Shown: positions 7,356 to 61,662, counted from the first letter of the stretch. The stretch: 64,000 nt of DNA from Psammoneis japonica (GCA_008632985.1 QPGO01000055.1:1-64000), one strand, 5' to 3'. Notes: generated by a model from the sequence alone, not told the origin. A program made the numbers and translations.

Positions 7356-8500
7356 ATGTATTACAGAACAGTCATCAGTTTCATCCTTGTATCACTGGCT
7401 TATGGTCGATTGATGGAATTTCAGAACAAGACAACAATCGAGAATCAACAGCAACAACAATTCCGTTCTGAGAAGGTTTCTGTCGACGTCGACCACCATG
7501 ACTCGAAGACACGCGGTTTATCACAAACGCATCCGTTCGAAACGAGCGTTTGTTTTGATTTATCCGACAAGCATGTGTGTGTAGGAAGTATTCAGCTGGG
7601 CGACACTGGACAACAAGTGCAAGTGACTACTCAAGCGAATCAAACGTTTCAACCTCACCACCTTGCCTCGTTGTGCAGTGCCACGTACAATCAAGTCCCA
7701 TGCCGCTATTGTAGAACCTGTGGCAATCATATGAACCGAATGACTCTAGACTGTTCCAATGTGATTGCTAATTCATCGTGTTCAAGAATCAATTGTGATG
7801 GGACGTGTCATTCAACATCACGTGGTTCTGTATGGATTTCAGAATTAGCGGCCTTTAAACATGCCATGTTGGCGAGTGCCATGCTTTCTGTAATTGTCAT
7901 GACGTTTGTGCGTTCGATATTTCAAACTTGTTGCAAACATCAACGTCAACAGCATCACCAACAACAATTGTGGCCATGACGGATTTTGAAGAGAGTTATC
8001 CGCCCGAACAGGAACTTACAGCGGAGCGACAAGAATTGATTGAAGCGTCGTTGATTCGAAAGGTAAGATTCTGTTGAGCATGCAGCACGGCTTGCTTTTT
8101 TGTTATTGCTGTGGTTCTTACTCGTATCTTACGTACTTCTCATCAATTATTCTAGTCTGCTACTTTGGATGAAAACGAGAGAATCATTCATAAGGATGAA
8201 TCTGACAAAGCTGGTTTGAACACCTCTAAGACTAACAATAGTCACGAGGAAAATTACACAATGCTTTCCACTAACGATACTGATATTCCAAACGAAACCG
8301 AGAATGATTCAGAAAAGCAACAACATGTTTGTCAAGTATGTTTGGAACCGCTCGCGGACGAAGTTGCAGAGTCGAGGGTGTCGAACTGTCGTCATGCGTT
8401 TCACTATGAATGCATTGTGGCATGGCTGCAGAGTCGCAATGATTGTCCGTGTTGTCGCGCCAACTTTTTGATGGTACAAGGGCCTGGTACACTTGCCTGA
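7356..8500 (+). CDS. Signal peptide + Cys-rich ectodomain + TM + RING-H2 E3 ligase; apparent frameshift near 7940-7975
   Basis: Signal peptide MYYRTVISFILVSLAYG, a TM segment, then ERQELIEASLIRK in another frame. Intron 8063-8155 is followed by CQVC...CRHAFHYEC...CPCCR (RING-H2). Confidence 0.7.
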
Positions 8501-11500
8501 AATACTTTGTTATAGTTTTTGGAACGCCTCATGCTGTACTGGCGGGTACCAACTTTTTCCAGGACAGGAGCAGCGTGGGGCGTCACGTGCAGTTGTGTCA
8601 TTCACTGCTGGATAATGCGATTAAGCTAACGAACTATTTGGATCTAGCTATGTTTCTGTTTACTACTAAAATAGAGTGGGATGAACGGCTCAATTGTAGT
8701 GTGCTACTCTCTTGTAGCTACAGAGATGAAGCGACCGAAGGGTGCGATGCCCAAGACAGGTGTGACCAGTGTCCAACGCAAGACCAGCTCGTTGCAGTCT
8801 AGGGAAAGGAGAAAAGATCGCACACCTTTTATCTCTCTTATCTCTTATCTTTCATGATGACTCTTCCAATTCCTTTTTCATGATTTCTAGCATCCCAGAT
8901 GCCAGTCGTAGATTCCAAACCAAATCGAAAAGCATTGATGATTCCTCTCAGGCAACAACCTTTCACACGAAAATGCACAGAATTGCACACCTTCATTGGC
9001 AAAATGATTTGCTCACCAGGAGGTGACCTGCACCAGTGGGGAAGCCACTTCCTGCCTCCCAACAACATGCATGTGCAATCAACCACACTGCATGAGTTCC
9101 ACATCAAGAAGCCCACCTCTCCTGTCATCTTGTGAAACCAAGATCTGACATCAACTGGTGCTCTGGTTGCAGCCTTGCCAATGGAACACTTCAAGTGCTG
9201 CACAATGTTGTCAAGTCATGGCAAAAGAACACCTTTGTTGAAACAAGAGGATGGCTCTCCAAGCTGTGAGAGTTGTTTTGCTTGTCTTGTGCCTTTCTTG
9301 CATCTTGCACCAGGAATCATGGATTCACCCATGTTTGCTCTGGAGCACTTTTTGATCAAGCCAAAGACTTCATTTGCAACCAGATGGCATCTCCTCAAGT
9401 GCATCAAGTTTGTGAATGCTCTGCTCATGCCAGCACAAGTGTCTGCACATTGTCACCATGATGCAAGAAAGACACCCCTCATTTTCCACCCTCAAGAAAT
9501 TGCACACCACAGTGTGCCCTTTTGGCTTGCCCTGTGAGCGGGGTGGGTCTCAAAAGCTTTTTTTGGAGCATGGAGGCACAACAAAAAGCAGCACTTCCCC
9601 AAACCTGATGCAGACGAAAGGAGGCTGGGTCAGACTGGAGTGTTGCTGATGAGCACAATCAACCTGCAACACACAATGGCCAAGCAGCAAAGTGTTGTGG
9701 AGAGGGTGGGTGGCAGCTGTGTGGTCTTCACAACACAGCTGCTGCTTGTGTCAAATGTGGCGCAAATGAGGACAGCTGACAGCAGCTGTGTTTCTTTGGT
9801 TGCAAAAAAGCTGTAAAAAGCTGTGCTGTCAACAAAGAGTGCCATTGCTGTGCTGCCATTGACTTGTGCACTCAAATGACACTGCACTTGAAAATGGTTG
9901 CCATGTCTCAAGTGGGTCCAAGAGCCACCCTTTAACTTCCAGGTGCCCAAAAGAAAAATGACTTGGCACTGTTGTGAATGACTCTGTCAAATCTGTTGAG
10001 GTTGTGCAGATGGAGCGCTGCTTTTCCAGGTCCAAGCACAGTTGTCACAGCAACTTCTTCTGGCATTTTTTTGGATTGTGCTGCTGTGTCAAAGCTTGAG
10101 TTGACACAGCCAACAAGCAACCTGTGGCAGTTGTGAAAAAAGACAAAGCCATCAAGCATTGAGAACATCATTGCAGACATGACAAAACAAGAAGTTGCAC
10201 ATGGGAAGTCAAAAGCTTGAGCATGTCACACACCCAAAAAAGCAATGTGTGCCAGCAGAGGTCACAGCACATGCATGCATGCCAACAGAGTTCACCACAC
10301 ATGTGAGAAGCAAGCACAGAGAAGAAAATTTCAGATTGAGAGCCAACAGCAACATTGACAAAAACACAGCCCACCTCCTGCAAAAATCATCTCTGACATG
10401 GAGGGCAATGATGGAGACAACAAGGATGGGTGCAGCACAAATGTTGAAGTTGAACAAGCCAGCTGCTCAACCACAAGATGTTGAGCCCAACATGCACCCT
10501 TGGTTTGGCAAGGTTCTTTCACAAAAAGCACATGGTGCATTTGCAGCATTTGTTGTGGCTTGGCTCTCTGTTGTTGTGTCCTTTGTCTCCTCATGCTGCC
10601 ACGCATCAATGTTGAGTTTGTCACAGCAAAATGGCAGAGCCACAATGGAAACAAGATCAATGAGAGCTTCCTCAGGCAGCTTGGAAAATGTGCCCATTGT
10701 GCTGGGCTGGGTGCACAAGAGATGGCAAGGGCACTTGCAAAGCCAACAATTTTTTTGCAGATGTTCTTGATGCAAAGACAAGAAGCCAAAAAACATGGAG
10801 CCAGTGCAAGTCAATTCTTTGTGACAGACAAGAAAAAAAGGTGCCTCCTGAGCAACACCTGTTCCAATCATGTTGCACTGCTCTCAGGTCAGCCCAATGA
10901 CTCACATGCCCCTTTTTTCAAGTGCTTTCATGGAGCCAGCACACTTGAAGGATGACATCAAAATACAGAGCCACTGCTTTGGGAGCCTTCAATTTCTTTT
11001 CCTGGCTTCCTGATGCTTTGTTGCACAAATTTGTTGTTCAAAGCTGGAACCATGACATCAGATTTGTGTTCTTGGCTGCTGCCCACAACATGTCAGCTGC
11101 TTCAATGGCTGGGAACAAATTGGGCATGAGAATTTTAGATGACTGTGTCATGGAAGGAGCTGCTTGAGCTGCCTCATTCAAAGTGTGGGGGATGACTGGG
11201 GATTCAAAAAAAATGCTGGGAAGGAGTGAGTTTAGTTTCCAGGGCACCCTTCTGCAAGACAACAGTCTTGAAAGACAAAACATCAAAGCTGGGTGATGCT
11301 TGTGAAGATGGTTGTTTGGACAAAGATGCGAGCACTGGAAGCTGCCTGTCAAAGTGCCAGCAAAGTGGACAACAAGCAAAAAAGAAGACAAACTTGTGAA
11401 ACCAAGTTGTCAAGGATGAACAAGATGATGCCAAGAAACCCAAATTCTTGACATGATGCACAAAAATGCACCCTCCATTTTGTGGCATGTTGGAAGGAGT

Positions 11501-13849
11501 TCAAGCAAATTGGGGGCACTGCAGCATGGCTGGTCCAGCATTTCTGGCAACAACTTGGTTTGCCACTTTTGTTTTGGGTGTGTCAAAAGAGGAGTTTGTG
11601 GAAAGGTTGTTGTTGTGTGCTGGTGAATTTTGTTCGCTGCCAGAGGCTGGGCCAGCTGCATGCATGAAATCACATTGCTCCTGGCAGCAAAAAAAGCAAA
11701 CCCAGATTCAAAAAAGTTCTGAGAGGCTCAACTGAACAGAGACAATGGTTGGTCACCTTGACAATGACAAGCTGGCAAAACCAGCACATTCAGGCAATCT
11801 GGTGTGTGTCAGAGTCAACATGGAGAACACTCAAAAGTTGTGCTTGACTCTCTTCAACGTGATGGTGAACTTAAACTTCTGCTGCAAGCAACAATTTTCA
11901 CACCAGCTTTGATGACAACAACTCAGTGCCAACTGTTGGGTGTGTCCCCCATTTGGACAGCACTGATGATGTAAGAAAGTCAACCATCCCCAAGATTTGC
12001 TCCAGGTCCAGGAGGTGGGAGGAGCTTGTGCTGCTGGGTTGTGGAGAAATTTTTTTTGACTGCCTGGCACCAAATGCACACATTTCTGTGGTGTGCTCTC
12101 TTTTGCAAAATTGATCTGTGCCCCTGTTTTGTGAAGCCAAAGGTTTTTGTTGCACCCATTTCTGAGGAGGCACAATTTTGGGCTGGGCATTTTTTCATTT
12201 TTTCTGAAGAAAAAACACCTGGGCACACCACAAAGTGTGTGCTTCAACCATGATGGTTCTCTCTGCCATCAAGAAGCATTGTTGAAACACATGCCAACTT
12301 GAGCTGCTCCAACTCAGTGAGCTGTGTGGTCCATGTTGTTGTGACATCGTGACATCTCCAGCAAAAAGCTGGAGCCTGCTCTTGGTTTCACACCCCCCCT
12401 CTTGTGAGCCACCCAGCAATGGCTGCAGTGCCTTGAACTTCCAGCTCATCAGGAGGTGCAGGAAGTGAATTTGGAGATTGACAGCATTGTTTGCCTTGGC
12501 AGCAATGCTCTTCTTGAGCATCTTGCTCATCAGCAAGGCCTGTTGTTCCAGGCATTCAGTGGCAGCAAATCCTTGATGACAAGCAACTTGCAACCTCATC
12601 TGGTTGTTGTTGCACCTGCAATGCCACAGAGCAGCTGCAAGTTTGCATTTCAAACATGAGCTTTCACATGTTTGAGTGGAAAAATGTGTGCTGGTGGCAA
12701 TCAGCTTGCTTCAGCTGCTGGCTCCTCTGCTGGCAAACCTGGATGCCAGGCACTGACATTTTTGTGTCATTGCTTGTTGCTGCATTTGGCACAAAACCAG
12801 CAACAACCAAACAACTGAGTTGCACAAATGTGTCAGTTGACAAATGCTCCCACACATCTTGGCTTTTGCCTGCGTGCTCAAGATCAACAAGCTGCAATTT
12901 AAAGACAAGCTTGATGGACTGCTCACATCTGGCCCCAGCAAACCCAGGTGTTGCACAAGCATTTTTTGACTGACATGATGCACTCAACCAACAACTGCAA
13001 TGACACCGCCATTGTGCCATTCACAACACCTGCTCTGGGCTGCTGTGAATGTCAGAGTGGCTGCTGAGAACCAGGAAAGACAAAACCAAGAGTTGATGTG
13101 GCAATGAACAGATTTGCAAAACATTGCAGAGGGGCTCTCTGAGTCATGCTGCGCACACACACACAGTGGCTGGCAATGACACATGGTCAAGTTCAACTGC
13201 CTGGAGAGACATGGGGTGATCTCATGGGTGCATGACAGGCAATCTGAGGTGTTTTTGTCTTTGTTTCTGTTGCCGCTGCTGCAGCTTTTTAAGTGCTCTC
13301 CTCTTGTCAGTTTGGGTGCTTTTTAAGCTGGACATCTCTTCCAGGAATCTTCACAAACCTTGGTTTTTTGTGCCTGCAGGTGCCAAAATTTCTTTTGTGT
13401 GCCAATCACGCCGCACAAGTTCCCATTGCTCATCCCACATTTTGATTGATTGCATGGAGCATTTTGATTCTCTCTCTCTCTCTCTTTCACATGCAGCCAG
13501 AGAGTGCATTCTGGCAGCCCAAACGTTTTTTCACACAGAGCCACCAACTGGGTTCCTTGCCCACCAAAAAGCACTTTGTGCACTCTCCATTTTTCTGAGC
13601 TTGTGGTTGGCTGGCTCGTGTTCAAAGTCAGCTCTTTCACATCGTTTTGGTGTTGCCTTGCCGGGCTCTATCTCTTTATGATCTTGTGTGGTTTCAACGG
13701 ATGCATGCAGTGCAGTTGTGACCGTCGCCAAAAGGAACACAAAGATTGCACACATTGGAGACAGAACATTGTCATTGATTCAGTCAACGCTCCAATGCTC
13801 ATCGTCAACTGTTGCATCGTGTGAGTGCGCGTTCAACGGTCGAATCCCC

Positions 13850-15985
13850 TCCTCAGTTCCTTTTTGCTTTCACCAGGGCACGCATGTGGAAAAAATGCAG
13901 AATGTCCTTCTCACTCGAGGCAACACAAAAAATGTGATGCCAACTCGCATCCTCACAATTTTCTCGTCTCGCATCTTTTTTTGCGTCCCCCATGAAGCTC
14001 CCTTCAAAGACTCTCCTCGTCTTTGCCTTCCCTGGATTGGTTGCCGTTGCGCAAGCCTCAGGTGTGTTGAATGAAATCGGTTGAAACTTTTGCATTGTTG
14101 AAATTCCAATTGTTTCACTCACTGTCTGTTCCATGCTGCTTCGTGGTGACTGCAGACAGGACCTGTGCCGCTGACATCTCGACAGGCGCTGCGCTCATTG
14201 ATGGCAACAGCATCAACAACAAACCAATGACTCCAGTGAGGAAAATGCTCAGGACTGGCAAGCGCTGCGACAGGCAGATGGAGAAGCAGGAACGAGAGGA
14301 TCCAGACAGAAGGACGAAGGAGGAAGGCAAAAAGGACGAGGAAGAGAGCGAGTCGGAACAAGAAAAGGACAAGGAAGAGCGCGAGGCTGAACGAGAAAAG
14401 GACAAGGAAGAGCGAGAGGCTGAACGAGAAAAGGACAAGGAAGAGCAAGAGGCGGAACGTGAAAAGGACATGGAGGAACACGAGGTGGAACGCAAAAAGG
14501 CCAAGGAAGAGCAAGAGGCAGAACGTGAAAAGGACATTGAGGAACGTGAGTCGGAATGTGAAAAGGACAAGGAAGAGCGTGAGGCGGAACGAGAAAAAGC
14601 CAAGGAAGAGCGTGAGGCTGAACGTGAAAAGGCCAAGGAAGAACGCGATGCGGAAAGCGAAAAGGACAATGCGAGCAGGAAGGGGGGACTTGAGAAGGAC
14701 AAGGAGGAACGTGAAGAGCAAGACAACGAGCCAACTGAGAAACGCGGAAAGCAAAGCAAGCCTGAATGGGGCATGCCCAAAAGCACCAATGCAGAAAAAA
14801 TGATGAAGTGCAAATGCGCAGTTGTGCGAAGGAGGGATGTTTCAATGGAAACGACGAAGGCATGTGCGCAGGTTGCGAGTCATGTCAGTGATGATCTTGC
14901 GCATGTGCACCCACAGGAATTGTTCGGAGTTTTGTTTCCGGATTCGTCGCGTCACTGCACAATTTGTCTGACAACGTGGCTGCAGCAACCCAAAATGCTA
15001 GAGATCTAGTTGCTGCAGTCTGTTGGTTCACCCCTCAGCATGACAAAGATGTTCATTTGTCTTTTGTGCGTGCAACAGTCAGCTGTGTGTTTGTGGCTTC
15101 ATTCTGCATCAAGGAACACATTGTGGCATTGCGCTCCCCACCTCCGTTTCTATCTTCAGCTGTCACAATTCACACCAGCAGCATTGATTGTTGCAGTCAT
15201 CACTTGGAACTCCTGCCGGCATGGTAAAACATGTGTGGCTCGCGCTTTCTTGGGCTACAGTGATTGACAACAGCCTGTGCAGCCAAGACGAGGCTCTTGG
15301 TTTGAGCTGCTGTGATGATCAATTTATGTTGGATGGAGTGGCCAGCCTTCCCGACAGTGTTTGTCCCACTTCCATGTCATGATGTTGTTTGGACTTTTTC
15401 TTTTTCAGCTTGTTGCTGACGACACTTGCTGGTTGTTGCGAGGCAAAGTTGAGAACAAGCAGTCGCACCCAAGAGAAGACGCAAAGATGCAGGCAGCAAC
15501 ACTTGCAGGTCGTGGCAGCACCAAGTTGGCAATGTTTTTTCGGCATGCAACAAGAGGAGCCAAAAAAGAAACGTCCAGTGTTCGACTCTACACCCACATG
15601 ATTCTTCTTGGCAATTTCCTCAGCCTGTGCTTGGCCACCAACATGGCACTTGCCGTCAAGTCATCGAGATTGAAAAGAACTTGATGCGGTGTGATGTGGC
15701 TTGGTTTGAGGTAGACCACATTTTTTCTTTTGCTTCCATCTGAGTGGATTCTTCTTCTTCTGCCCGTTGTAGAACTGGGTGGTGTTGCAACCCACAATTT
15801 GCCACATTCATGAGAGAGTGTGGTTCTCTTGAGGCACGTGGCAGCAACCAAAGAATTGTGTGCTTTGTGCCAAAATGCACACCACCTCATGTCAGCTGCT
15901 GTGGTTTTTGTCTAGAGACCCACTCTCTAGAGTGTTTGCAGCATCCCCCGTGGTGCTTTTAGATGCAAATGTCTCCAAGGGCACA
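13850..15985 (+). repeat. Copy 1 of a ~2.1-kb diverged direct duplication
   Basis: Collinear similarity with ~24150-26295, e.g. ctttgccttc..ggattggttgcc..gcaagcctcaggtg and ggcaatttcctcagcctgtgcttggcc. Confidence 0.85.
13992..14800 (+). pseudogene. Secreted protein with 11-aa charged tandem repeats (EKDKEEREAER), copy 1
   Basis: Signal-like MKLPSKTLLVFAFPGLVAVAQAS and intron 14062-14155 in frame with the E/K repeat ORF; 33-bp tandem repeats at ~14350-14720. Confidence 0.6.
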
Positions 15986-16049
15986 TTGAGAAAGGTTGCT
16001 TGGTTGTTGGATCAATGAGATTGTCAGAGTTTGTCAGTGCAATTGCATG

Positions 16050-16560
16050 ATCCAGCATTGCCTTGGACTCAACAGTCATGTCCACATGAGCAACCTTCCA
16101 GTTGCTTGTCTCTCCTTTGATGGTTGACTGCTTGAGAACTTTCCTGAGTTTGCAATGCTTGAGAACATGGCCACCCTTCACTCAGCAGGATTTCTTTGTT
16201 GTCTGACCACCAATCTGGATGTGGGAAAGAAGGGTCAGAGCAGCCGACAGCTTTTCCTGACAATGTTGTTGGCACAAACCACTTCTGCCAAATGTGGAAC
16301 ATGGTGAAGGCATGGCTTGTGGCAAAGGTCAGGAAGTGCTGTGGACTCCACGGGCAGCTCCCATTTTGTGCACACAAAGAAATTCTTCTTTTTTGCTCAT
16401 GTGGTGGTGACACTCTTCAGCTTTTGACCGACAACTTCCAACCCAAATCTGTCAGCAAAATGTTTGATTGATTCAAAACCAGGACATTGGCCAAAAGAAA
16501 AAGAAGAGGGGTGGGGATCAACTTTGTCTTGGAAAGAGGCACACTGGTTCAGCACCATGG
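16050..16560 (-). pseudogene. Degraded ORF fragment, inverted paralog of 17200-17740
   Basis: MVLNQCASFQDKVDPHPSS..KHFADRFGLEVVGQKLKS and CHKPCLHHVPHLAEVVCANNIVRK align with the + strand copy. Confidence 0.6.
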
Positions 16561-17199
16561 TCAGCCATTGGGGCAGTGGTGTGAAAGACTTGGTCATGCA
16601 GAAATGTGCAGAGCTTGACAGTGTGTCATTGCCAGGCACAAGTTGGTGCACTGCTGTGAACATCAGAGGCCGCAATGTTGTGGTGTTCACTTCTCTTTTT
16701 CTGATTTATGACATTTGACGTAATGCAAGTTTGGCTTTTTTTGTTTTTGCATTTGGGGGTTGTTTGGCCAGTGCATCATTTGAGCGTTTTGCAGCATCCC
16801 TTCTCACCAATGTTTTTCATTCATTTTTCTCAATCAATCCAAGTGTGCCTTTGTTTTGATTTCAAAACTTTTTGCTTTGATGACATTGCTGCATTTCTTT
16901 TGATGCATTGTCTTTGAAAGTGGTTTTCAATGCCTCAACCCCATGCACGTGCCGCTGCAACAGCTGGTGTCCCCTCCACACCAAAGTCACTCCCCATGCA
17001 CACTTGCCTCATTGTTTCCTCCAGCACTTCCAGAACTTCAGTGCATGGCTCTCTTCTTGGTTTTTAGCACATGTTCTGCAGGCACAATTTTCTGCGCATT
17101 TCACAACAGTGCATCCTCTCCCCAAAATGCATTTGACCAGAGCATGCACTGTTGTGATTCACGCGCGTTCTGTGTGAATCAACACATCTGACTTCCAGC

Positions 17200-19400
17200 C
17201 ATGGCGGTCAATGACTTTGCCCCATCCCACAAGGAAGTCGACCCCAACCCTTCCTTCCAATTTCCTGATGAGTGTGATGTTGATGAAACAGAACATTTTG
17301 CCAATGGCTTTGGAGCAGAGTTGTTTGGACCAAAGCCCAAAAGTGCACAACTTCAATGCGTGCATCCAAAAAGCAGTTTTGGAGACAACAAATTGGTCCC
17401 CCTCTCCAGAATTCCTTGCTCTTCCCTTCCTTTGTCACAAGCCAAAGTTGCGTCACATCCCACATGTTGCAGAAGCCATCCGCACCAACAACATTGTCAG
17501 GAAAACTCTTGGATGCTGTGACATTTGGTCCTGCATCATGACTTTTGGTTGGCCCATGAAAAAATCCTGTGTGCTGAAAGGTGAGCATGTTCTTTGTCAT
17601 CAAAATTTGGAGGAACAAGCTCTCTGTTTCTCCAAAGCACCTGGAGAGACAGAAAAAGAAGAGGAGCACCACATGCAACTTCGCCACAATGTCAATGCAA
17701 AGGCAGAATTTGTGCATTGCCGGCAACGACCCAAATGACCCTGCATCTGGCCAGCCTTGTTTCCATTTTTGCAGTGCAAAAGTCTCCAAGATCTGATCAA
17801 TGGCCAAGCACATGACCTTCACGGTGCACACTTTGTCACCAAAATCATCATGCGTTGTGTCCAGCACAAATCCAAGGACATGGACTGTTGGTTCATGCAG
17901 ATTTTTTGCCGTGTCAATGCCCAAAAGGAGTGGCGCATGTTTGTCAATGGCTTTCTTGCAACACGCAATTCCAATGAACCCGGTTCCCAGGAGGATGAGA
18001 TCAAGGGGTTCCCTGGAGACAAAATCAGCAACGTTGAGAACTCTGTGACATTGGCGGGCAATTCCCTTGCCCGTTGTCAGGCTTGTGAAGAAAAAATCAA
18101 TTCCATGTTGAATCATGAATTTGGGAAGTGCTGTCCCAAGGAGCAACCTGACATGCAACCCAGGCACAGCAAGCAGCTCACAATGCTTCATTGCAGAATG
18201 TGTGATCAAAGGGCTGACCACATGGATGACGATGACAAATGAGACCACAAATCCAAAACCAAAACACAAAATCAGGAGGATCCGCAAAGATGGCACCTGC
18301 TTGCATGATGGCAAGTGCCCCCCCCCCTTTGCCTTTGCTGCCTGCATGCATCTGTTGCCTCATGCATCCTTTCCCCCCCTGACTTCACATGCCCCACCAG
18401 AGCCTTCCTTGACCATCCCCAACAAGAAAGCCAAGAGCATCATGCTCTGACCCCGCATCTCCTTCAGCATCTTGTGATGCTGTGATGTCATCTGGGGAGG
18501 CCCGCCACACTCTCACTGCCAATGTTCCCACCTTGTCAGAAATTGCGGATCTGCCAAAAGCTTCTTCTCCTTCCAAAGGTCCTCCCTCCAAATGGCACCC
18601 CTCTTGGGCAGGTGTTTCCACAATTGCCCAGTTGTTTTGTCTCCTGCCCCAGCCAACGACATGTCATGGCTGGACAAGTCCACCATCCACCAGTGCTTTG
18701 ACCCATCCCAGTGTCAATCTGTTGCCTCAGAGGAAGTTGCTGCCCATCTGCCACACCTGCACATCATTGACAAGGCCACTGATGCCGAGCGTGTGCTGCA
18801 TCATTCTGCTGCCAACTTTTACCTTGCAAACAACTTGAGGGAAAACTGGCACATGTTTTCCAACAAAACCAACTCAAGCAATCCCGCCACCGCCTTCCGT
18901 GTCCAAGCTGAGCACCCTCCTCACCTGGATCACTGCCCTGCTCAGATGAACTGTCCGTCACCTGACAAGCAAATGCTCTGTGAGCCCGGCTCTGCCAAAT
19001 CAGCCAAACCCAAGGCCACACATGGTCTTGATGTTTTCAATCCTGGCAAAAACTTCAATGCAAGTGAGTCATCCAAAATCAAGGCCATGATGGCAGACAT
19101 TCTTGACTCAACCCAGCTGTGAAAAAACAAGATCAAGCTGCAAAACTCAGCAATCCGCTGCCATTCAACTGGTCTCTTGGTCATGAGGAGCACTTGAAAG
19201 TTTTGTGCAAGGAATTGGGTTGTCTGTGCCATGAAGCTGGCAGATTCATGTGAGCGCCAAGTCACACACAACACTCCCTGCAGGTTGTGGTGGTGGTGCA
19301 ACAAATTGGAGTTCTTCAAATTGACGCCAAGGATGGCAAGCTGTTGGACATTGGATGTCATCAAGAGAATGAACCTTGGTGAGGATTGCAAGTGTGACTG
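17200..19400 (+). pseudogene. Degraded, frameshifted long ORF of unknown function inside the island
   Basis: Successive protein-like frames (MAVNDFAPSHKEVDPNPS; CHKPKLRHIPHVAEAIRTNNIVRK; LINGQAHDLHGAHFVTK). Confidence 0.45.
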
Positions 19401-20563
19401 AAAAGAAAAGAAGGAGAGATGATGGTGCAGACATGAGCACAAGGAGAGCTTAGAAAGGATCCATCATGAACATGTCGAGCAATTTGTTGGCTGTGTTTGT
19501 GAGGCGACAAATGCGTTTGATTGCGTGACTGATTGCTCTCACAACGGGAGGTGTGCAGCAATTTTGTCGTTGCACATTTGGAGGAAGATGCCATGGAAGA
19601 AGTGGACTGGAATTCGAAGTTGGTGTGCCAAGTCCAGAAACAGGCTTGGAATGACAGTTTGCACCCAAAGTTGAGGATGGATCATCTAGATGAGGCATTT
19701 TTTTAATTAGCTCGTGATTTTGCAATTTCCCCGCACTTCGCCCGTGTTGTTTTGCAATGCCTCTGAGCACCGCCAAACACATGTGACTGTGTCCAGCCCC
19801 CATCAGGGCTGTTAGATCTGTGTGTGAACTACACATTTCAACCTTCAAATGCCAATTGTCGCATTCGGCGCAGTTGTTGCATGTGACAAACTGCCATTTT
19901 TCGCCAAAATCGCACTGCTTGTGGGAGACAAGCCACAATGACTTTCCAGGAAAAGCCGATGATTGGCGTTTGACTGGCTGCAGACACATCTGCAGTCGTT
20001 GAGCTAAAGATCGCGCATGGTCACAACCATCGCAAACACATTCTATGATGTCTTTCGAAGGGACAAAGTTCGACCTGTCGCTGAAAATATTTTGTTGGTG
20101 AGCGCGCGCATCCAGTGCAAGAAATCCGGGTTTTTTCCAAAAAAATGCGAGCTCGCGCGCAAACAGACCTCATCTCGACGATCCATCCTCAAAGCCTTTG
20201 CAGGCACCAATCTTCATGTGTGTGTCTGCATCAGTTATGAAGATGAAAGACAACAACAAAATTCAACATTGACTTCATCATTGATGGTTGCAATGGCTGT
20301 TTAAACTGAACATTTGATCACCAAAATTGTCGCAAACACACTCAAGGATGGGGCGCTCAATGGGGAACTTGCACGTTGCCAATTTTGACCATTCTGAAAA
20401 GGTGTGGTGGTTAAAATGTAGAAGCATTGGGAGGAGTGTCACATGTTGAGTGTCAAGACAGAGGTTTGAAAATTTTGCAACGGCAGTCTTCCTCTGACGA
20501 CCTGTTGCACAGTGTGATCACAACAACTGTGAGCAGCTGCAACAGTGCATTGAGACAAACGCA

Positions 20564-21729
20564 ATGGCAAGGAGGAAGGCAGTGAAGGACAGGATGATGG
20601 CAGAGGCACCACCAAACAGCCTGACAGCAGCCTTGCAGTGGGCGGGTGCAGCAGGAGATCACCAATCTCTAAAGAGAGAGGTGGAAGAGGTGGCACGGAG
20701 AGAGCCATTCCCAAAAACGAAATTCCTTGTGAAGGCAGACATGGCAAGTGGTGGCAAGGTGTCATGGCCAGTGTGGAAAAACACAGTCAATGGCAAGTTC
20801 AGTGAGTGCAAATGGGCAGAGGGTTGTGGGAGGACTGGGCAAACAAATGCGTGCTCAATGCAGTCATTGCAAAAAAGAAATGCCGTGTGTCAGTCAACAA
20901 TGAAGAGTGCGATGAGCAGCAAGTGCTGTGGGGTGCATTTCCAAAGTGGGATTGGGTGTGGTGCTGCTGACAAGATTCTCATTTTGCTGCAGCTGTGATG
21001 ACAAAAGAACAAGCAGGAATCTGCGGAAGCAAGAAACCAGCAAAGAGAGCCAAAAAAGCAAGAAGAGCAAAAAGGCCCAAGCGGACAATGAAGAACAGAT
21101 TCTGGCAACTTGGGAGGATAAGACAGCTGATGCCATTGTGTCTGAGAAGCGGACAAACAAGGAGGCACATGCATGGTTCTGTGACAACATCCTGAAATTC
21201 ACAAAGAGCGCTGCAATGCAGGGAAGGATGGTGGAGTGCAGCAGCACCAAGGCCACAGATCCAGCCGCGGTGAGCAACGAGGCACTGGTGCTGTTGATGT
21301 TGGAAAACTGCTGGAAGGTTTGGGAGCACAAGACCACACAGGAAGGAAAGGACAAAGGGAGCGAAGAGGAGGAAGAGAAAGCAGAACTGGTGCCCTTTGT
21401 GCACAGCCCCAACACAGCATGAATCTTGGAATGACTGAGGTGTGCTGCGATTCAACACCCTCCTTGGGGAGGTCAAGGAGGACAGGGCAAGTGATGCGGG
21501 TGTGCATTTTGACATGTGGCACACCAACGGAAAGAAAAGGGAGAGCAAAGGTGAAGGAAAAAAGGGCAGAACCAGTGAAAAACCAGTGGAGACAGAGATG
21601 AGAACACAAGCAACAACAGAACTTTCCAGTGACAATGAGGAGGACTGTGATGCAATGGACAAACCTGGCAACAGAAAAGATGAGGAGGAAGATGTAGAGA
21701 GCAAAGAAGACAGCAACAACGGCAAATGA
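20564..21729 (+). pseudogene. Degraded ORF with VSNEALVLLMLENCWKVWE motif and acidic tail; probable accessory ORF of a DNA transposon
   Basis: The motif resembles the SDEA(F/L)xLLxLENxW..W motif of diatom repeat-associated ORFs (from memory, not searched); frameshifted. Confidence 0.4.
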
Positions 21730-22849
21730 GGAACAACTCCATCAGCACAGGCCAGTTGAAAATGCAACACGGCTGACACCATGGCATTGGCTTGGAGTTC
21801 ATTTGTCATCCATGTGAAAAAGCAAAAGCAACAAATCATTGTTGATTGAGGAAAGCAGTGCAAATTCATTGCACAGATCACATCAAATGTAAAATCAACA
21901 TGTGACGTGAGACAAACAATTGACATTGATTGTCAGCTTCTGCAGCAAAGGAGAAGTGCACACACACAGATGGGAAAAAGGGGTGCTGTTTGAAAGTCAA
22001 TGTTGATTTCTTGCAGTTAAAAAGAGGGCTCTACAGCAAAAATGATGGACTTTGACAGATGAAGAATTGTTGCCATCTGCACAACTGACAAGGTTTGAAG
22101 CTGCAAAAATGTTGTCCATGAAAGGAACAAAAATCGCTGTGAGAAGGGGGGTGTCAATCACCACACAATGCACGCTCTGATGAAGTGCACTCAAAACCTT
22201 GTGAATGGAAAGAATGTGGTGGGGGGCAGCTCAAACAAAAAAGGATGGAAGATGTGAGGTGGGGCAAAGAGAAAGCAAGGAAACACCATGCGCTGACATG
22301 TTGGATGGCAGGCTGCACAGAAAATGACACTGAGATGTGTGCAACAAGGTGACAGATCACATTGTGACACCAGGTGTGACATGGATTGCATGTGAATGAG
22401 GGCACAGCTCTTGGGCAGAACAACAAAGTGCGCCATCAACACCAAGAAGTTTGTGGTTGTTGAAGCAAAGACATTGCAAGCAACTGGGAAAATTGTGCTC
22501 ATTTGAGCAAAGTTGCAGATCAACACAAATGTGAAAAAAACATTGTGAGAAAAGAAACAAGACAAAGCAGATTTGCACGGAAAGCAGCAGATTGACATGG
22601 CAAGCCACCTGTCTTGTCATCAAAGAGAAAGTTTTAAAAGTTGGCACAGATGTGCAACTCAAAAGAGCTGGTTTAATCTGCTTGAGTTTGGGACAACATG
22701 GGTTGCAATTTCAGCCCCATTGGAGCTGTTTGTTGGAATGTCAGTGTCAAATTCAAAAGTTTCAAAATCAAGAAGCGCTGCATGGTTTCTTGCAAGGAGT
22801 GACAGCACATGATGTGAATGTGTTCACAAAATGACCACATGATGCCAGG

Positions 22850-23980
22850 TGTGAGTTTTGCAAAAATGCGCTGAATCTCGCTCTTTTCACATTCAAAAAT
22901 GCAAGCAACCATGTTTTTTGACAGCAACAGGCAGCCCAAGTGCAGCAAAAAACCCACATCCAAGCACACAGGAGTCAAAAGCAGTTGCTGTTGAGATTGC
23001 CGCAGCAATGCTGGAAACAGCTTCTTTGTCCCTTGTTTTTTCATCACTTGATTCATCGACTCAACGCACGGCTTGGATCAGAGCTCAACTCAGCCACAAG
23101 GACTCAGCTTGGTTTTCTGCTGCTGCTGGCATCATTGCATTTGTTTTTCTGCCATGCTCTCCAGCACCAGCACCAGCACCAGTGCCAGCACCAGCACCAG
23201 CAAAAAATTGAGCTGAGCCCTCATTTTTGCCCCATGTTTAGTGGCCATTTTTCTCATGCTCGCTGAAGTGGTCTCATTGATTTTTTGCTGCCACTTGGTG
23301 ATGGTTGGTTGTCAAGTTGGCTTGGGGTTGGCTTGGCCCAGCTTCAAAAGTTGTGCCTTTTTTGCACAATGCCCCAGTTTGCCCCCCCCCCCCCCCCCCC
23401 TTTGCAGATTTCTGCTTGTCAAGCACCAACAGAAACTCAACACAGCGTCTCAGAGTCCATGACCAATGCACATCAAGCAGCAGCACCACCCGACAAGAAA
23501 GCACCAGCGTGGTTCATAGGATGGCATCTTGTCAGAAGAAGAAAAGTGCCTTTGCTGCAGCACATGATGCATCAGCGCACTTTGCGCCAGATGCGCCGAT
23601 GTGGTTTTTGAGGCCACACACAGCTCTTTTGTTTGGAGGCAATCAGTGCCAAATCATTCAACAAAAGTTTCAAGATCAAGAAGCATCATGCAGTTTTGTG
23701 TGAGGAGCGACAGTGTGCGATGTTTGTGTGTTGACAAAATGATTGCATGCATCTTGCAAGCACGTGCTGAATCTCACTTTCACACTCAAAAATGTTGGCA
23801 ACCATGTTTGACAGCAATGGGTGGCCCGAGCGTGATGTGGCACCCAAGTCCAAGCACACGCCAGTTGCCGTTCTTGAAGATTGTCGCAGCAACAAAAACA
23901 GTTTGATGATCCCTTGGTTTTTTCATCATTTTGTCGATCGACTCAACATGTGTGGGTCAGATGAGGACTCAATTCAGCCA
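22850..23980 (+). repeat. Two diverged ~240-bp direct repeats (~22850-23095 and ~23745-23980)
   Basis: Shared gctgaatctc..ttcaca..tcaaaaatg..gcaaccatgttt..acagcaa..tccaagcacac..tttttcatca..atcgactcaac. Confidence 0.75.
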
Positions 23981-24149
23981 TTTAATGTCCAGTCCCCCCA
24001 AAAATAAAATGATGGAGAGAAATTTGTGTTCAAGCCCTCTTGCTGCCGGCAACAATCTGTCATTTCCATGCAAACAAAGTCAATGCTGTAGATTTTAATT
24101 TGAACATGGTGACTCTGGAGTGGCACTTTGACTCTGCAATGTCCTTCCT

Positions 24150-26295
24150 CATGTCAACAGCAAAAACAATGTTGCCAACTCCACTTGCTTCACTCCTCAC
24201 AATTTGCTCGACTTGTTTTTTTTGCAAGACCCCGAACAACATGAAGCTCTCTTCTCTCCCCCTCTTTGCCTTCCTTGGATTGGTTGCCATTGCGCAAGCC
24301 TCAGGTGTTGATTGCGATCGGTTGACACCTTTGCATGTTTGAAACTCCAATTGCAAATTTCACTCACTGTCTGTTCCTTGCTGCATCGCGTGATGACTGC
24401 AGGCATCTCGACAGGCATTGTCCTCACTGATGACGGCACAGTGAAGGAAAGGGACGTGGTCATGGCAAGCAAGATCGCCCCATCAAGGACAAACCGACGA
24501 CTCCTGCAAAGAAAATGCTCAGGACTGGCAAACCCGACGACCGGCCGGTGGAGAAGGAGGAACGCAAGAAGCCAGACAATGAGCCCACCAGGACCAGGAC
24601 TGGCCATGCGGAAAAGGAGGAATGCAAGTTGGAATGCAAAAAGGACAAGGAAGAGCGCGAGTCGGAACGTGAAAAGGACATTGAGGAACGTGATGCGGAG
24701 CGTGAAAAGGACAAGGAGGAACGCGAGTCGGAACGTGAAAAGGACAAGGAAGAGCACGAGTCGGAACACAAAAAGGACATTGAGGAACACAATGCGGAGT
24801 GTGAAAAGAACAAAGAGGAGTGCGAGGTGGAGCGTGAGAAGGAGAAGGAAGAGCGCGAGTCGGAATGCGAAAAGGATGCAGACGAACGCGATGCGGAGTG
24901 TGCAAAGGACAAGGAGGAGCGCGGTGCGGAGCATGAAAAAAGGAGAAGGAAGAGCGCGAGGCCAAACATGAAAAGACACAGAGGAGCACAGGTCAGAACG
25001 CAAAAAGGACAAAGAGGAACGCAAGGGGGAACTCGAGAAGGACAAAGATGAGCGAGAAAAGTCAGACAATGAGCCCACCAAGAAACGTGCAAGGAAAAAT
25101 GAGCCTGAAGGGGGCAGGCCCACATGCACCAAGGAAGAAAGGATGCAGCGCAAATGTTGCAGATGCAAGAAGGAGGGATGTTTCCATGGAAACACAGATG
25201 ACAAGTGCGCAGCTTGCAAGACATGTTAAAATGACCTTGCGCGTGTGCACCGGCAACAATCATTTGGAGTTTTGTTGCCGGATTCATCGCGTCACTGCAC
25301 ATTTTGTCAACTGACAATGTGGCTGCAGCAACCAACAATGCCAGAGATCTGGTTGCTGTGTTCCATTGGTTGTCCTCTACATGACAAAGATGGCCATGTG
25401 TCTTGTGTGCGTGCCAAAGTCAAGTGCATTGGCAGCATCATTCTGCACTCACACGGTGTTGCGTTCCTCACTTGCACCTCATTTCTGGCTTCAGCTGTCT
25501 CATCATTTCCCCTGGCAGCGTTGATTGTTGCAGTTGTCACTTGGAAAAACTGTGGCAAAACATGCATGGCTCGCGCTTTCTTGGGCTACAGTGTCGACAA
25601 CAGCCTTGCTGTGCAGCCGAGACGAGGCTCTCATTTGAGCTGCTGTTGGCAATCAATTTGCATTGGACAGCAGAGCAGCCGCCCTTCCCGACAGTGCTTG
25701 TCCCACTTCTGTGTCATGATGCCATCTGGACTTTTTCTTTTTCAGCTTGTTGCTGTGCGAGGTAAAGTTGAGAACAAGCAGTGTGCACCCAAGAGAAGGC
25801 ACAAAGACGCAGGCAGCAACGCTTGCAGGTCGTGGCAGCACCAAGTCGGCAACATTTTTTCGGCAAGCAACAAGAGGATCCAAAACGAAACGTCCAGAGT
25901 TCGACTTCCCGCATGATTCTTCTTGGCAATTTCCTCAGCCTGTGCTTGGCCGCCGACACGGCACTTGCCGTCAAGTCATCGAGATTGTAAAGAACTTGAC
26001 ATGACACAGCTTGGGTTGAGGTGGACCGCGTTTTTTCTTTTGCTTCCATCTGAATGGATGATTCTTCTTCTGCGCATCGTAGAACTGGGTGGTGTTGCGA
26101 CCCACAATTTGCCACGTTCATGAGAGAGTGTGGTTCTCTCGAGGCATGTGGCAACCAAAGAATTGTGTGCCGTGTGCTTCGCGCCAAAAAGCACACCTGG
26201 TGTCAGTCGCCGTGGCTTTTGTCGAGAGACCCACCCTTTAGAGTGGTTTCAGCATCCCCTCTAGCACTTAGATGACAAGGACTCCTTGGGTACAA
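24150..26295 (+). repeat. Copy 2 of the ~2.1-kb diverged direct duplication
   Basis: Collinear with 13850-15985 through to gagacccac..tagagtg..cagcatcccc. Confidence 0.85.
24241..25100 (+). pseudogene. Secreted protein with 11-aa E/K repeats, copy 2 (frameshifted)
   Basis: MKLSSLPLFAFLGLVAIAQAS, intron 24305-24402, frameshift before the EKDKEERESER repeats (~24610-24940). Confidence 0.6.
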
Positions 26296-26603
26296 TAAGA
26301 GTACAACAGACGAGTTTCAGCTCAACATCACTGTCGCTTGTTGCCATCATGGCTCGTTTTGTGAAGTTGAACTCCTTCCACCTTACGTAGCGCCAAAAAA
26401 AGAATAAAGACACCGCTGGAACACGGAATCCAACCAGTTTTGGCGCGCTCAGCAACAGATGTCGCAGAATTGTCTGATATACATCCACACATAAATGTAT
26501 TCCTCATCTTTTGCCAACAATGACGAGCGAAGCACACTGAAGTGAAGGATCGCACCCCGTTATTTATCAGTTTGCTGTTTTGCTGTTGAAGAGAAAGTCC
26601 TCT

Positions 26604-34340: not shown

Positions 34341-35810
34341 AGCCACTGCTGGTGGTGCCATGGTTCTTGTTGAAGGCGAGGTGATTTTCTCACCCCACAG
34401 CGCAGAGCAGCACCAGAAAAAAAATGTTGAGCCACTTGTTTTTTGAACCAGCAACTCAATGTCACCACAAGGGAATCCCTGCAAGGCTTCCTGTGCTGCT
34501 CCTCCTCGCGCTTTTTGCCTTGGAGTGAGGCTGATGATGCTTGCAGCGGCTCTGTGGGTTGCGCCAAGAGAAAAGTTTGTTCTTCTTGTTGACACAAACT
34601 TCAAACTCACAGTGAACAGACACCCAGCAGCACCAATTCAACAAAATCACAAGAACCAAATGACTCACTCTAAGAGTGACGTGAGAGCAGAGACATGAGA
34701 GAGATTGGCGAGATGACGAAATTTCAACTGCAAAGAGTTGCCAAATCTTCCGAGTCAGGAGCAACAACAATGTCATCTTTTCAACACATCCTGGCTCTTT
34801 GAATTTCCCATGTGCTGGATGTTCCAACACACTCCTGCCACTCACATCATCAATGTTCTGCTTGTCAGACAAGTTTGCATGGTGTGGAAGGCAGGTTGCT
34901 CCCTCCAGTGTGCACGTGGTGATCGAATTGGCACATCAGGCTTGCCTGTCTCCCCATGTGCAACACACATCCCATGCTCCACAAGGTGCTTTTTGCACAG
35001 TGTTGTGGTGCAAAGCGTGTGTGCAACGTCAACATGCCAGGCCCACAGCTCCAAGCAGCGACCCCTGGCTCATGTGCTGCAGTGCAAATCAAGGTGGGGG
35101 AGCTCTCCCTGAGCAGCAACACATGCACCCACCCTTGTGGTGACAGACTGCAACACTGCTGCACACCACACCACACACAGCCAAGCTGGCAAGTTGGGGC
35201 AGCTGCCTGTTGCCACATCATTGCCCGAAAAATGAGCGGCGCTTCTTGCAGAAAAGTTCAAGCTGCTGGAGGAGTGCGGGGGTTTTCCACAGTGAAATCA
35301 AGGGTGGCCTTGGCAGAAAATGACAGTGATGTGGGTTCTGGCTGGTGCTCTCAGAGTGGCGCATTGGAGAAAAGCTCTCTTCTGTGCGAGTGCAGCTGGC
35401 TTGTGCGACCTCCAAGAATCCTCAAGAGCTTCCCAAAAGAGCTGTTGTTTTGATTCCCAGTTTGTTGTGCATGTTTTGAGACAGTCACATTGGGCTGGTG
35501 CTTGAGTGACTCTTCAACTTGAGAGAGAGAGACAGAGAGAGACAAAGCGAGCACAGGGCCTCAACCACCTTGCAACAGCCAGCAGAAATGTGGGCAACAA
35601 AAGGTTCCAACAGAGGAGTTGCTCAGGAGGGAACCTTGCTCAACCATTTTGCAATGCCCCCCTGTGGTTTGCAGCATCTGCAGTCGCAAATTGGGCCCTT
35701 TTTTCCCATGCAAGTTTAGAACATGACGAAGAGCCGCAGCGGTTGTGTGTGGCATGCCGCGCACCTGTCTGTGTGCCTGATCTCGTGCCCGCTCGACCAC
35801 AAAAAAATGG
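34341..35810. mobile_element. Second TpA-depleted degenerate repeat-like island, starting at an assembly N (34340)
   Basis: Very few TA, excess TG/CA, Tyr-free spurious ORFs; TA returns abruptly after ~35820. Confidence 0.6.
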
Positions 35811-58677: not shown

Positions 58678-59449
58678 TGTTGCCAGCTTTCTTTTTTATT
58701 TCATCGCCGAAAAGAAAAAAAACCAGGCCTGCGGGGAGCATTGACCACTTGTCTTTCTTTGTGGGTGTGGGTGTATGTGTGCCGTTACGTTGCATGCTGT
58801 ATTGCCTGTACGTACTTAGGGCCCTACCGCCGGGCGGGGCCGGTATTGTGGCGGCTGAGTAAGTGGCGTGGCCACCGCACCGGTGACGCGGATGACCGTT
58901 ATATTTGATGTCTCATGCCATTTTTGGGGCTGTAGCGAGGTGCACGGACACTCTTTTTTTCCAATTTATCGCCATAATAGCGCATCGCACAAACTCACTT
59001 ATTGTTCGATATGTTTTCCCCAATATGACTTTTTCGTGTAGAATTCACGATAAATTATCTTTGTTTATAACTGAATACATTTTTGAACATGCCACGCCGG
59101 CAATCCCAATTTTTCAGAACTTTCGAGCTCTCCTGAAAAACCGTGCCACGTACCCGTCGTAGGGAATTTATCGATTTTTTAGGATGTCCCCACAACCTCT
59201 CATGTCCTCAATGATCATTCTACGAATCCGAAGAACTCATCTGCACTAAACAACCCATACCCTTTCAAAATCCAAGGGACACACTTTCAAATTCAGACGG
59301 ACAACCCCACTGCCCGACTGCCCGACTGCCCGACCCCCTGACTGCCGGACCGACACGAAAAAGTCTGCAATCACCAACCACTTTTAGCAGCGCAGGGGGG
59401 AGGACAGACGCACCCACCTCCCAACCCACGCAGCCTTGAACGACCTGAA

Positions 59450-61611: not shown

Positions 61612-61662
61612 GGACGGGGGCCGGCTGGCCCCAGAGCCAGCCTGCAGCCCTCCTCTGCTTGC

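Follow-up and report, generated by a model that had tools for sequence, protein, structure and literature searches.

Fungal RIP acts on duplicated or foreign DNA by changing C to T, mainly at CpA, and therefore creates TpA and lowers GC, while deamination of 5-methylcytosine turns CpG into TpG or CpA and cannot remove TpA. Adenine is edited after U or T by ADAR, by the fungal TAD2-TAD3 system and by TadA/ADAT2, enzymes whose known roles are on RNA; ADAR and fungal editing favour a G on the 3' side, and the natural tRNA context of TadA is U33-A34 followed by C. A preference for U 5' of the edited A is described for the known RNA editors in the accessible parts of two sources (PMC11156358; 10.64898/2026.01.13.699255).

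The closest described system comes from an unreviewed preprint on the chlorarachniophyte Bigelowiella natans, which belongs to a different supergroup lineage from the diatom considered here (Mettrop et al., 2026; 10.64898/2026.01.13.699255). According to its accessible text, integrated NCLDV and virophage DNA undergoes de novo TpA>TpG/CpA hypermutation in mutation-accumulation lines: of the 231 de novo mutations located in two regions of integrated viral DNA, 230 were A>G or T>C, all 230 of them at TpA, at a rate raised ~1000-fold. Furthermore, the genome contains 124 clusters depleted of TpA and enriched in CpA+TpG, mostly without annotation; Rho is 0.45 in the NCLDV region, and the virophage region is without depletion. 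These data were interpreted there as adenine deamination, with an ADAT2 homologue as the candidate enzyme (Mettrop et al., 2026). The initial annotation of the present locus, which knew of no characterised pathway acting in this manner, has thus become out of date. For diatoms, the open-access literature searched contained no description of TpA depletion or of hypermutation.

Composition, borders and sequence context of the island

The window, i.e. the whole stretch of 64,000 nucleotides from the diatom Psammoneis japonica that was analysed, includes a long island from which TpA is almost erased (Table 1). The whole island holds 62 TA against ~739 expected from flank density (frequency 0.0036 versus 0.0426; binomial P(<=62 TA) = 3e-235), an expectation which, like the expected sequence context, is a proxy taken from the mostly coding flanks of the window. 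Calculated per kb, the observed/expected ratio (o/e) of TA is 0.01-0.17 over 9001-26000 and 0.41-0.97 in the 47%-GC flanks, and the GC of the island (0.46-0.50) is the same as that of the flanks. CA+TG amounts to 0.2143 in the island versus 0.1459 in the flanks, and this gain of 0.068 approximately matches the combined loss of 0.071 from TA (-0.039) and CG (-0.032; 0.0203 in the island versus 0.0519 in the flanks). In six-frame translation, Tyr makes up 0.10% of the island versus 2.34% of the flanks, Cys 6.13% versus 3.73% and His 4.87% versus 3.37%. The near-absence of TA over ~17 kb, the excess of TG/CA and the Tyr-poor, Cys/His-rich translations claimed in the initial annotation are all borne out by these counts.

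Both borders of the island are sharp (<=60 bp), and the positions of TA agree with the earlier placement at ~8910 and ~26270. The left border can be placed between 8909 and ~8940, the final TA of normal density being at 8909 and the next at 9814, which also bears out the claim that TA is missing between ~8911 and 9813. The right border lies between 26269 and 26291; the 62 TA were counted in 8910-26262, and normal TA density is found again from 26291. Confinement to a discrete region beside DNA of normal composition is likewise evident for a second, smaller island, whose 250-bp windows give an o/e of 0.2-0.5 for CG and of 1.4-2.5 for TG/CA.

Table 1. Position of the islands and of their constituent features in the window, with the basis of each assignment.
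Feature	Position	Strand	Basis
TpA-erased, partly CpG-erased island	8910..26270	.	TA count versus flank density; gene-free mosaic between two stretches covered by contigs of run X2
Most decayed segment	8910..13400	.	TA o/e 0.00-0.08, CG o/e 0.04-0.10 (500-bp table); single-copy depth, X1 contig depth ~62, equal to the flank
Duplicate copy A, inside the island	13901..15991	+	blastn, 74% identity over 2236 columns, versus 24138-26300
33-nt purine-rich tandem array in copy A	14330..14711	+	Tandem Repeats Finder
Multi-copy repeat family without recognisable coding homology	16690..22080	.	X1 k-mer depth; TA-depleted; CG o/e 0.17-0.87
Duplicate copy B, its end being the right border of the island	24138..26300	+	blastn and alignment with copy A
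33-nt tandem array in copy B	24610..25054	+	Tandem Repeats Finder
Second island, smaller but alike in signature	34341..35717	.	1 TA in 1377 nt; begins right after a single N at 34340

The loss of TA depends on its neighbours and is symmetric between the strands. The TAs surviving in the island comprise 30 YTAR, 16 RTAR, 14 YTAY and 2 RTAY, compared with 315, 417, 497 and 482, respectively, in the flanks (chi-square p = 3.7e-9), and the resistant context, YTAR, is itself strand-symmetric. Loss thus reaches 92% overall and 99% for RTAY; GTAC and GTAT have 0 survivors in the island, and the best survivor is TTAA. The process acting on TpA prefers a TA that is followed by a pyrimidine (TAY). The context effect can be read equally well as a preference for RTA, and TTAA and TTAG are the best-surviving contexts in the island. 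With respect to the strand outcome, 1843 TG and 1875 CA were counted, i.e. 50:50, and no strand-coordinated clusters of TG or CA were detected in the island by heterogeneity (chi2/df 0.94-1.21) or by a runs test (z = -0.88).

CpG loss, which had been treated as irrelevant in the initial annotation, accompanies the loss of TpA in the island. CG o/e is 0.04-0.10 in 8910-13400, 0.1-0.9 elsewhere in the island and ~1 in the 33-nt tandem arrays (500-bp and 1-kb tables), so that CpG loss varies 20-fold while the loss of TA is uniform. The depletion of CG (o/e 0.04-0.9) is coupled with a matching gain of TG/CA and with 61 one-sided sites between the duplicated copies. Such CpG>TpG/CpA decay would be explained most simply by deamination of 5-methylcytosine in putatively methylated repeats, which accounts for that half of the signature made up of CG>TG/CA changes, and for its patchiness; the difference from that process is that TpA has been lost here too, and uniformly.

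Duplicated copies, copy number and independent runs

Copies A and B, each about 2.1 kb, differ by 29 reciprocal TG/CA adjacent double differences; the next class has 6 members, and the other double-transition classes have at most 5 each. At CG sites, 41 are intact in both copies and 61 show a one-sided CG<>TG/CA difference, counts that predict ~11 reciprocals derived from CpG and therefore leave ~18 of the 29 as derived from TA. Since the TG/CA differences between the copies are reciprocal, the change came after the duplication. Along the copies, the 29 sites form 11 runs versus 13.4 expected, a difference that is not significant in the runs test. The examples given in the initial annotation recur in the alignment, namely the reciprocal TG versus CA at 15234/25565, the tggTG/tagCA pair at 15951-15954/26262-26265 and the gggCAca/gggTAca pair at 15980/26291. 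Furthermore, the homology of copy B extends ~10-30 nt beyond the right border, and there it carries GTAC and ATAA as against CA and TG in the internal copy A. The unit of the 33-nt array of copy A is natively without TA and has kept its CpG (o/e ~1). Beyond copies A and B, no hidden older duplication was found within the window using exact 26-mers and a transition-blind purine/pyrimidine alphabet.

The copy number of the island was estimated from an independent public run (X1), in which the summed k-mer depth is 200-1400 in bins 16632-22607 versus ~60 elsewhere, and ~two thirds of the island stands at single-copy depth. The multi-copy family is represented by many X1 contigs that differ by transitions. 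The earlier claim of TA>TG/CA mutation therefore stands as far as an in-place, post-duplication change in a sharply bounded domain is concerned (29 reciprocals, the mass balance and a border copy that keeps TA), while its restriction to repeats is not supported by k-mer depth: only ~16.7-22.1 kb is multi-copy by this measure, and 8.9-13.4 kb, where depletion is strongest, stands at single-copy depth. The depleted segments of single-copy depth may be relics of old repeats.

Run X1 confirms the island sequence independently, as its contigs contain 0.87 of the sampled 31-mers of the window and one 9.6-kb contig crosses flank and island at an even depth of ~62. Since X1 and the window are not identical, both data sets carry the TA-free sequence. 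In the tabulated pieces, 31 sites differ over 8567 nt of island versus 0 over 1914 nt of flank (P ~0.002); over all places, 153 transitions and 26 transversions separate X1 from the window, and 40 of the 182 differences were itemised. Among 22 itemised single-copy places (9315-17035), 2 are TA<>TG/CA, 2 make up one adjacent TG<>CA change, 7 are of CpG type, 7 are AC/GT<>GC and 5 are transversions, one place falling into two classes. Ongoing TpA mutation in the island is thereby only hinted at, and part of the differences could be assembly errors enriched in the island.

Proposed mechanism and rival explanations

The island shares with the B. natans regions a conversion of TpA whose product, TpG or CpA, depends on the strand, a confinement to discrete stretches adjoining normal DNA and the same long-term footprint; the mass balance, the 29 reciprocals and the context of TA survival point indirectly to changes almost only of the A>G/T>C kind at TpA. 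The differences, as far as the accessible preprint text allows, are that the host there is rhizarian whereas the flank genes here are diatom-like, that the DNA there is viral whereas the island is without a recognisable viral or transposon gene, and that de novo events were seen there, whereas the changes here are read from standing sequence. Moreover, depletion is near-complete in the island (TA o/e 0.01-0.17 versus a Rho of 0.45 in the NCLDV region), and CpG co-depletion, the TAY/YTAR context and a test of strand symmetry, reported here, are absent from that text, in which neither CpG nor trinucleotides nor diatoms are mentioned. The diatom island therefore adds near-saturation, CpG co-decay and TAY preference to hypermutation of the B. 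natans kind.

Resemblance to fungal RIP lies in context-specific transitions that ruin DNA in place, sharp borders, skewed dinucleotide indices and a lack of intact ORFs. Nevertheless, the outcome is opposite, as TpA is 12-fold depleted with GC unchanged instead of TpA being gained and GC falling. RIP acts only on sequences duplicated in the genome, and the most depleted segments here, which are of single-copy depth, may be relics of old repeats. The adenine editors share with the island the edited adenine after U/T. The 3' preference of the island is, however, for a pyrimidine and not for the G of ADAR and fungal editing. The tRNA context of TadA, in which the A is followed by C, offers a lead, as it agrees with the preference for TAY.

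With a probability of roughly 0.6, the island is considered to be silent, degenerate diatom nuclear DNA, derived from repeats or of foreign origin, that two transition processes, each specific to a sequence context, have edited in place. By the first, the A of 5'-TA-3' would be converted to G on either strand, yielding TG or CA at equal odds with TAY preferred, and the process would have run nearly to saturation; it is probably kept to the island by whatever marks silent chromatin. The second would be the CpG>TpG/CpA decay, slower and patchier than the loss of TpA. The first process is most likely of the same kind as that seen de novo in B. natans, by analogy of footprint. The leading candidate for its chemistry would be an enzyme-catalysed deamination of DNA adenine (A>inosine>G), and the enzyme is most likely a DNA adenine deaminase.

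As the signature is strand-symmetric, A>G on one strand is indistinguishable from T>C on the other, and the context effect suits RTA equally; an alternative chemistry could thus start from thymine, with T at TpA sites of silent chromatin being enzymatically modified (e.g. by TET/JBP-type oxidation to 5-hydroxymethyluracil) so that it pairs with G and gives T>C. In dinoflagellates, hydroxymethyluracil replaces thymine preferentially at TpA, which lends this route some appeal. It is nonetheless unlikely, since the data hold no pointer to a modified base, mutagenicity of hmU:A toward T>C on such a scale is to our knowledge not established, and the sole experimental precedent, that of B. natans, was read in the accessible preprint text as adenine deamination. 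Editing might instead have taken place in RNA, through ADAR-like or fungal TAD-like A-to-I hyperediting of retroelement transcripts that was later fixed by reverse transcription and reinsertion. The 5' U preference of known editors (PMC11156358, as far as accessible) and the multi-copy part of the island are in line with such a history, which predicts one-sided, one-stranded A>G with a 3' G on a retroelement substrate; the island shows TG:CA of 1843:1875 without strand runs, a 3' pyrimidine and no recognisable reverse transcriptase, its single-copy-depth DNA is the most depleted and its depletion ends at a border within the homologous copy B, all of which make editing at the RNA level very improbable.

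Equally improbable is an inherited composition, by which an inserted virus or mobile element would already have avoided TA and CG through selection. Borders that are sharp and fall together with a repeat unit's end are consistent with insertion, and the mapped members of the family all appear TA-poor in the itemised differences. Reciprocal TG/CA differences between the copies, however, mark change after duplication; Tyr at 0.10% in six frames together with the absence of any family match argues against a functioning genome, and the segments that make up the mosaic of the island differ greatly in CpG decay but are uniform in their loss of TA. The concentration in the island of the small indels and substitutions that separate X1 from the window could also stem from error-prone reading of modified DNA in one of the data sets, and hence from an artefact of sequencing, base-calling or assembly such as misread modified bases in heterochromatin. 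This is hardly credible, since the separately assembled X1 contains 0.87 of the sampled 31-mers and one of its contigs crosses the border at an even depth of ~62, and the context-dependent survival of TA and the reciprocal sites are not known to us as error patterns.

Returning to in-place editing of TpA in DNA, a broader view is advanced tentatively, at somewhat below even odds: instead of being peculiar to B. natans, TpA-directed DNA editing may be a genome-defence or heterochromatin-linked mutator that a chlorarachniophyte and a diatom, as distant SAR lineages, have in common. It would read the palindromic TpA on double-stranded DNA, act on a random strand with TAY preferred and be aimed at CpG-methylated silent domains, and it could strip invading DNA of >90% of its TpA and thereby of all Tyr codons and of two stop codons out of three. 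If true, this would provide an independent second lineage for the B. natans result, among diatoms, a group both ecologically dominant and genetically tractable, and TpA-destroying hypermutation, as a mirror image of fungal RIP, would become a candidate for a defence widespread among eukaryotes. Any mechanism must explain near-saturation, the random strand, the TAY preference, borders sharp to tens of bases and the co-location of CpG decay. Such islands escape homology-based annotation of repeats and viruses and, TGA being the sole stop codon left, contain long ORFs that are spurious; a simple index of TA versus TG+CA would detect them.

Coding content of the island and its flanks

No Pfam family was found in the island at E<=0.1 among 57 stop-to-stop ORFs or at E<=0.01 among 12 ORFs, the matches being sub-threshold noise only, and no reverse transcriptase was recognisable in these 57 and 12 ORFs by Pfam. 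Rfam and tRNA scans gave 0 matches, and no viral or transposon gene was recognisable in the Pfam, homologue and viral-contig searches. None of 4395 word-sharing candidates matched the ORF at 17208-18359(-) at E<=1e-3, and that at 20979-21932(-) had no relative among viral contigs. One HMMER match (E = 9.9e-4 in 9 short stretches, 1.84 billion representatives) was taken as low-complexity noise. A 31-residue match of the ORF at 19450-20169(-) to a metagenome contig (L001) was rejected as chance (28% GC, normal TA with o/e 0.75).

No RNA run is listed as containing island sequence, which is not to be read as silence. The contigs of a further run, X2, recorded as 'DNA?', cover the island only by short, unlike pieces, which likewise are not to be read as evidence of silence; on the flanks, they skip 93 and 91 nt in a manner resembling spliced introns. 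A flank ORF of 1197 aa has 9 matches, which give no taxonomic placement. Other flank genes assign the window to a diatom and speak against B. natans as its source: for the flank carboxypeptidase, all named matches among the 120 listed are from diatoms (47-58% identity), the best match, outside that named set, has 63% identity, and an atlas neighbour cluster is likewise commonest in Bacillariophyta.

Composition and structure of the TpA-erased island

The window (64 kb, GC ~47%) contains an island, from ~8910 to ~26270, in which TpA is almost erased. Per-kilobase dinucleotide tables place observed/expected (o/e) TA at 0.01-0.17 in 9001-26000 versus 0.41-0.97 in the flanks, and TG and CA at 1.2-2.2 in the island. 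Between 8910 and 26262, 62 TA are seen against ~739 expected at the flank frequency of 0.0426, an expectation drawn from mostly coding DNA (binomial P = 3e-235). The list of TA positions sets the left border between the TA at 8909 and that at 9814, with 25 TA within 8503-8909 directly outside, and the right border between 26269 and 26291. In six-frame translation, Tyr amounts to 0.10% versus 2.34% in the flanks, Cys to 6.13% versus 3.73% and His to 4.87% versus 3.37%. Hence, the loss of TA with a TG/CA excess and the nearly Tyr-free, Cys/His-rich translations described in the initial annotation are both borne out. Of the 909 stop triplets, 819 are TGA; the loss of TAA and TAG accounts for the many long overlapping ORFs.

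CG is also depleted, a point absent from the initial annotation. Its o/e is 0.04-0.10 in 8910-13400 and 0.1-0.9 in the rest of the island, reaching ~1 solely within two 33-nt purine-rich tandem arrays, the unit of which natively lacks TA. Against the flanks, as fractions of all dinucleotides, the rise in CA+TG (+0.068) matches the fall in TA (-0.039) and CG (-0.032). GC content is unchanged. CpG loss is most simply the decay of 5-methylcytosine in methylated repeats; since it is patchy and TA loss uniform, the two processes are separable, and, as they occur together, both may target the same silent chromatin.

The island is built as a mosaic. Another, second island shows this signature too and is not described in the initial annotation; it opens directly after the sole N of the window (position 34340), which may mark an assembly join at the edge of that island.

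Features of the island and of the second island in the window
Feature	Coordinates	Remarks
Most decayed segment of the island	8910-13400	
Direct duplicate, copy A	13901-15991	74% identical to copy B
Direct duplicate, copy B	24138-26300	74% identical to copy A
Multi-copy segment	~16.7-22.1 kb	From k-mer depth
Second island	34341-35717	1 TA in 1377 nt

Summed k-mer depth in X1, an independent public run, is 200-1400 in bins 16632-22607 versus ~60 elsewhere. Inside this multi-copy family, the kilobase 19410-20410 is less edited (11 TA and 39 CG, the latter at o/e 0.6-0.87). One of the two deepest bins (19288-19951, ~1390) overlaps it, a contig of a second run, X2, covers it in part, and it may be the youngest or best conserved portion of the element. 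Each duplicate carries an ORF with a 33-nt (11-residue) EREKDKEE-type charged repeat (14071-15009 and 24434-25051), in which Arg codons appear to decay to Cys/His (ERE to ECE/EHE), as CpG to TpG/CpA change predicts. At ~14818-14885 a Cys-rich CxCx3GCx9CxxCxxC stretch follows; this is possibly a dead gene.

No Pfam family was found in the 12 + 57 island ORFs searched, and neither a word-indexed nor a full HMMER search found a homologue of the longest. No relative of the island was found in viral contigs, nor any RNA family or tRNA within it; a single metagenome match was taken as chance. A purine/pyrimidine-alphabet search, insensitive to transitions, found no further hidden duplication in the window. 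The flank genes are ordinary eukaryotic ones and encode a kinase, an HMG box, a diacylglycerol kinase domain, an S10 carboxypeptidase, WD40 and ankyrin. Among the 120 matches listed for the carboxypeptidase (best 63%), all named ones are from diatoms (47-58% identity), and an atlas neighbour of a second flank protein occurs most often in Bacillariophyta. On such similarity, the DNA is assigned to a diatom or, failing that, to a near relative among the ochrophytes. In two flanking genes, X2 contigs skip 93 nt (8061-8153) and 91 nt (27588-27678) and otherwise show no difference; these skips resemble short spliced introns, so that X2, though recorded as 'DNA?', is probably transcript-derived.

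Evidence for mutation in place

Copies A and B are separated by 236 transitions and 161 transversions, in an alignment that is ambiguous within the tandem arrays and that contains all the details of the two copies quoted in the initial annotation. The reciprocal TG versus CA differences reported there are upheld, as CA/TG accounts for 29 adjacent double differences against 6 in the next class and at most 5 in the other double-transition classes. TG opposite CA is the outcome expected when the two strands of an ancestral TA (or CG) are hit independently. From 41 CG sites intact in both copies and 61 mutated in one, per-copy CpG loss is ~0.43 (own arithmetic); therefore, ~11 of the 29 reciprocal sites would be CpG-derived and ~18 would stem from TA, which implies that sensitive TA was almost all lost while less than half of CpG was. 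Furthermore, the homology of copy B extends slightly beyond the right border, where B retains GTAC and ATAA, and CA and TG stand in the internal copy A. At this border, the process followed the domain rather than the sequence.

Surviving island TA (YTAR 30, RTAR 16, YTAY 14, RTAY 2) differ in context from those of the mostly coding flanks (315, 417, 497 and 482, respectively; chi-square p = 3.7e-9). No GTAC or GTAT is left, and survival is best for TTAA and TTAG. One rule holds on either strand: A after T is struck more readily if a pyrimidine follows (TAY), a preference that would fit a tRNA-adenosine-deaminase-like pocket. Close to the end of each duplicate, three TAs remain, every one in YTAG, a context that accounts for them, and thus an edge effect is not required. 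TG (1843) and CA (1875) are equal and show no local runs; the strand that was hit varied from site to site like independent coin tosses.

The X1 contigs contain 0.87 of sampled 31-mers, and a single contig crosses flank and island at even depth. In the listed pieces, X1 differs from the window 31 times over 8567 nt of island and never over 1914 nt of flank (P ~0.002, own arithmetic), and is therefore not the assembly's own data. Over all places there are 153 transitions and 26 transversions; 40 of 182 differences are visible, 22 of them in single-copy places (8910-17100). These comprise 2 TA<>TG/CA, 2 forming one adjacent TG<>CA change, 7 CpG-type, 7 AC/GT<>GC and 5 transversions (one place falls in two classes). 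The island may thus still be fast-evolving, with TpA mutation possibly continuing, although some differences may be assembly errors. The 7 AC/GT<>GC differences, 21 such sites between the duplicates (own count), and the island's lower AT (o/e 0.79; flanks 0.92) and higher GC dinucleotide (1.27; flanks 1.06) suggest, on thin data, a possible third and weaker flow, from A to G before a pyrimidine without a 5' T.

Mechanism, rival explanations and precedent

Most likely, TpA was lost by a strand-symmetric conversion of TA to TG or CA that acts on DNA and stays within the domain. A sequencing or assembly artefact is contradicted by X1, a second data set bearing the same TA-poor sequence, and a composition inherited by the island is at odds with the reciprocal TG/CA sites and with the lack of any workable proteome. 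RNA editing followed by reverse transcription is likewise contradicted, by the strand symmetry of TG/CA, the single-copy state of the most depleted segments, the behaviour of the depletion at the right border and the 3' pyrimidine preference. For the DNA-level conversion, adenine deamination would be the most likely chemistry, by analogy with Bigelowiella natans; thymine modification and subsequent mispairing is indistinguishable from it by sequence. The 'repeat-restricted' and 'genome defence' aspects of the initially proposed 'reverse-RIP' are hypothetical.

In B. natans mutation-accumulation lines, two integrated viral regions yielded 231 de novo mutations, 230 of them A>G or T>C, every one of these at TpA and at ~1000x the background rate, and 124 genomic clusters combine TpA depletion with CpA+TpG enrichment (Mettrop et al., 2026, bioRxiv 10.64898/2026.01.13.699255; preprint, unreviewed). 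Adenine deamination in DNA is the explanation its authors put forward, with an ADAT2 homologue as their candidate. This system is the closest known counterpart; the island's process would work likewise. The preprint text makes no mention of CpG, trinucleotide context or diatoms, and the features rated as new relative to it are the near-saturation of the loss, the accompanying CpG decay, the TAY/YTAR rule and the random choice of strand. No diatom report of TpA depletion or hypermutation was found in the open-access literature searched. Fungal RIP, of which the process resembles a mirror image, was rejected as its identity since the direction test fails.

GC-rich right end of the window

At 59300-64000, composition shifts abruptly to ~60% GC; TA o/e is 0-0.56 per 250 nt (32 TA in 4.7 kb), CG is intact (~0.9) and TG/CA lie at ~1.2-1.9. 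The long ORFs here have no Pfam match. Among language-model neighbours of the ORF at 61748-62779, RVT_1 occurs in 36-47% of members, which points to a probable GC-rich retroelement. The surviving TA follow a pyrimidine in 27 of 32 cases (YTAR 13, YTAY 14, RTAR 4, RTAY 1), and the same TpA pressure may act here on a younger element with Tyr codons still under selection.
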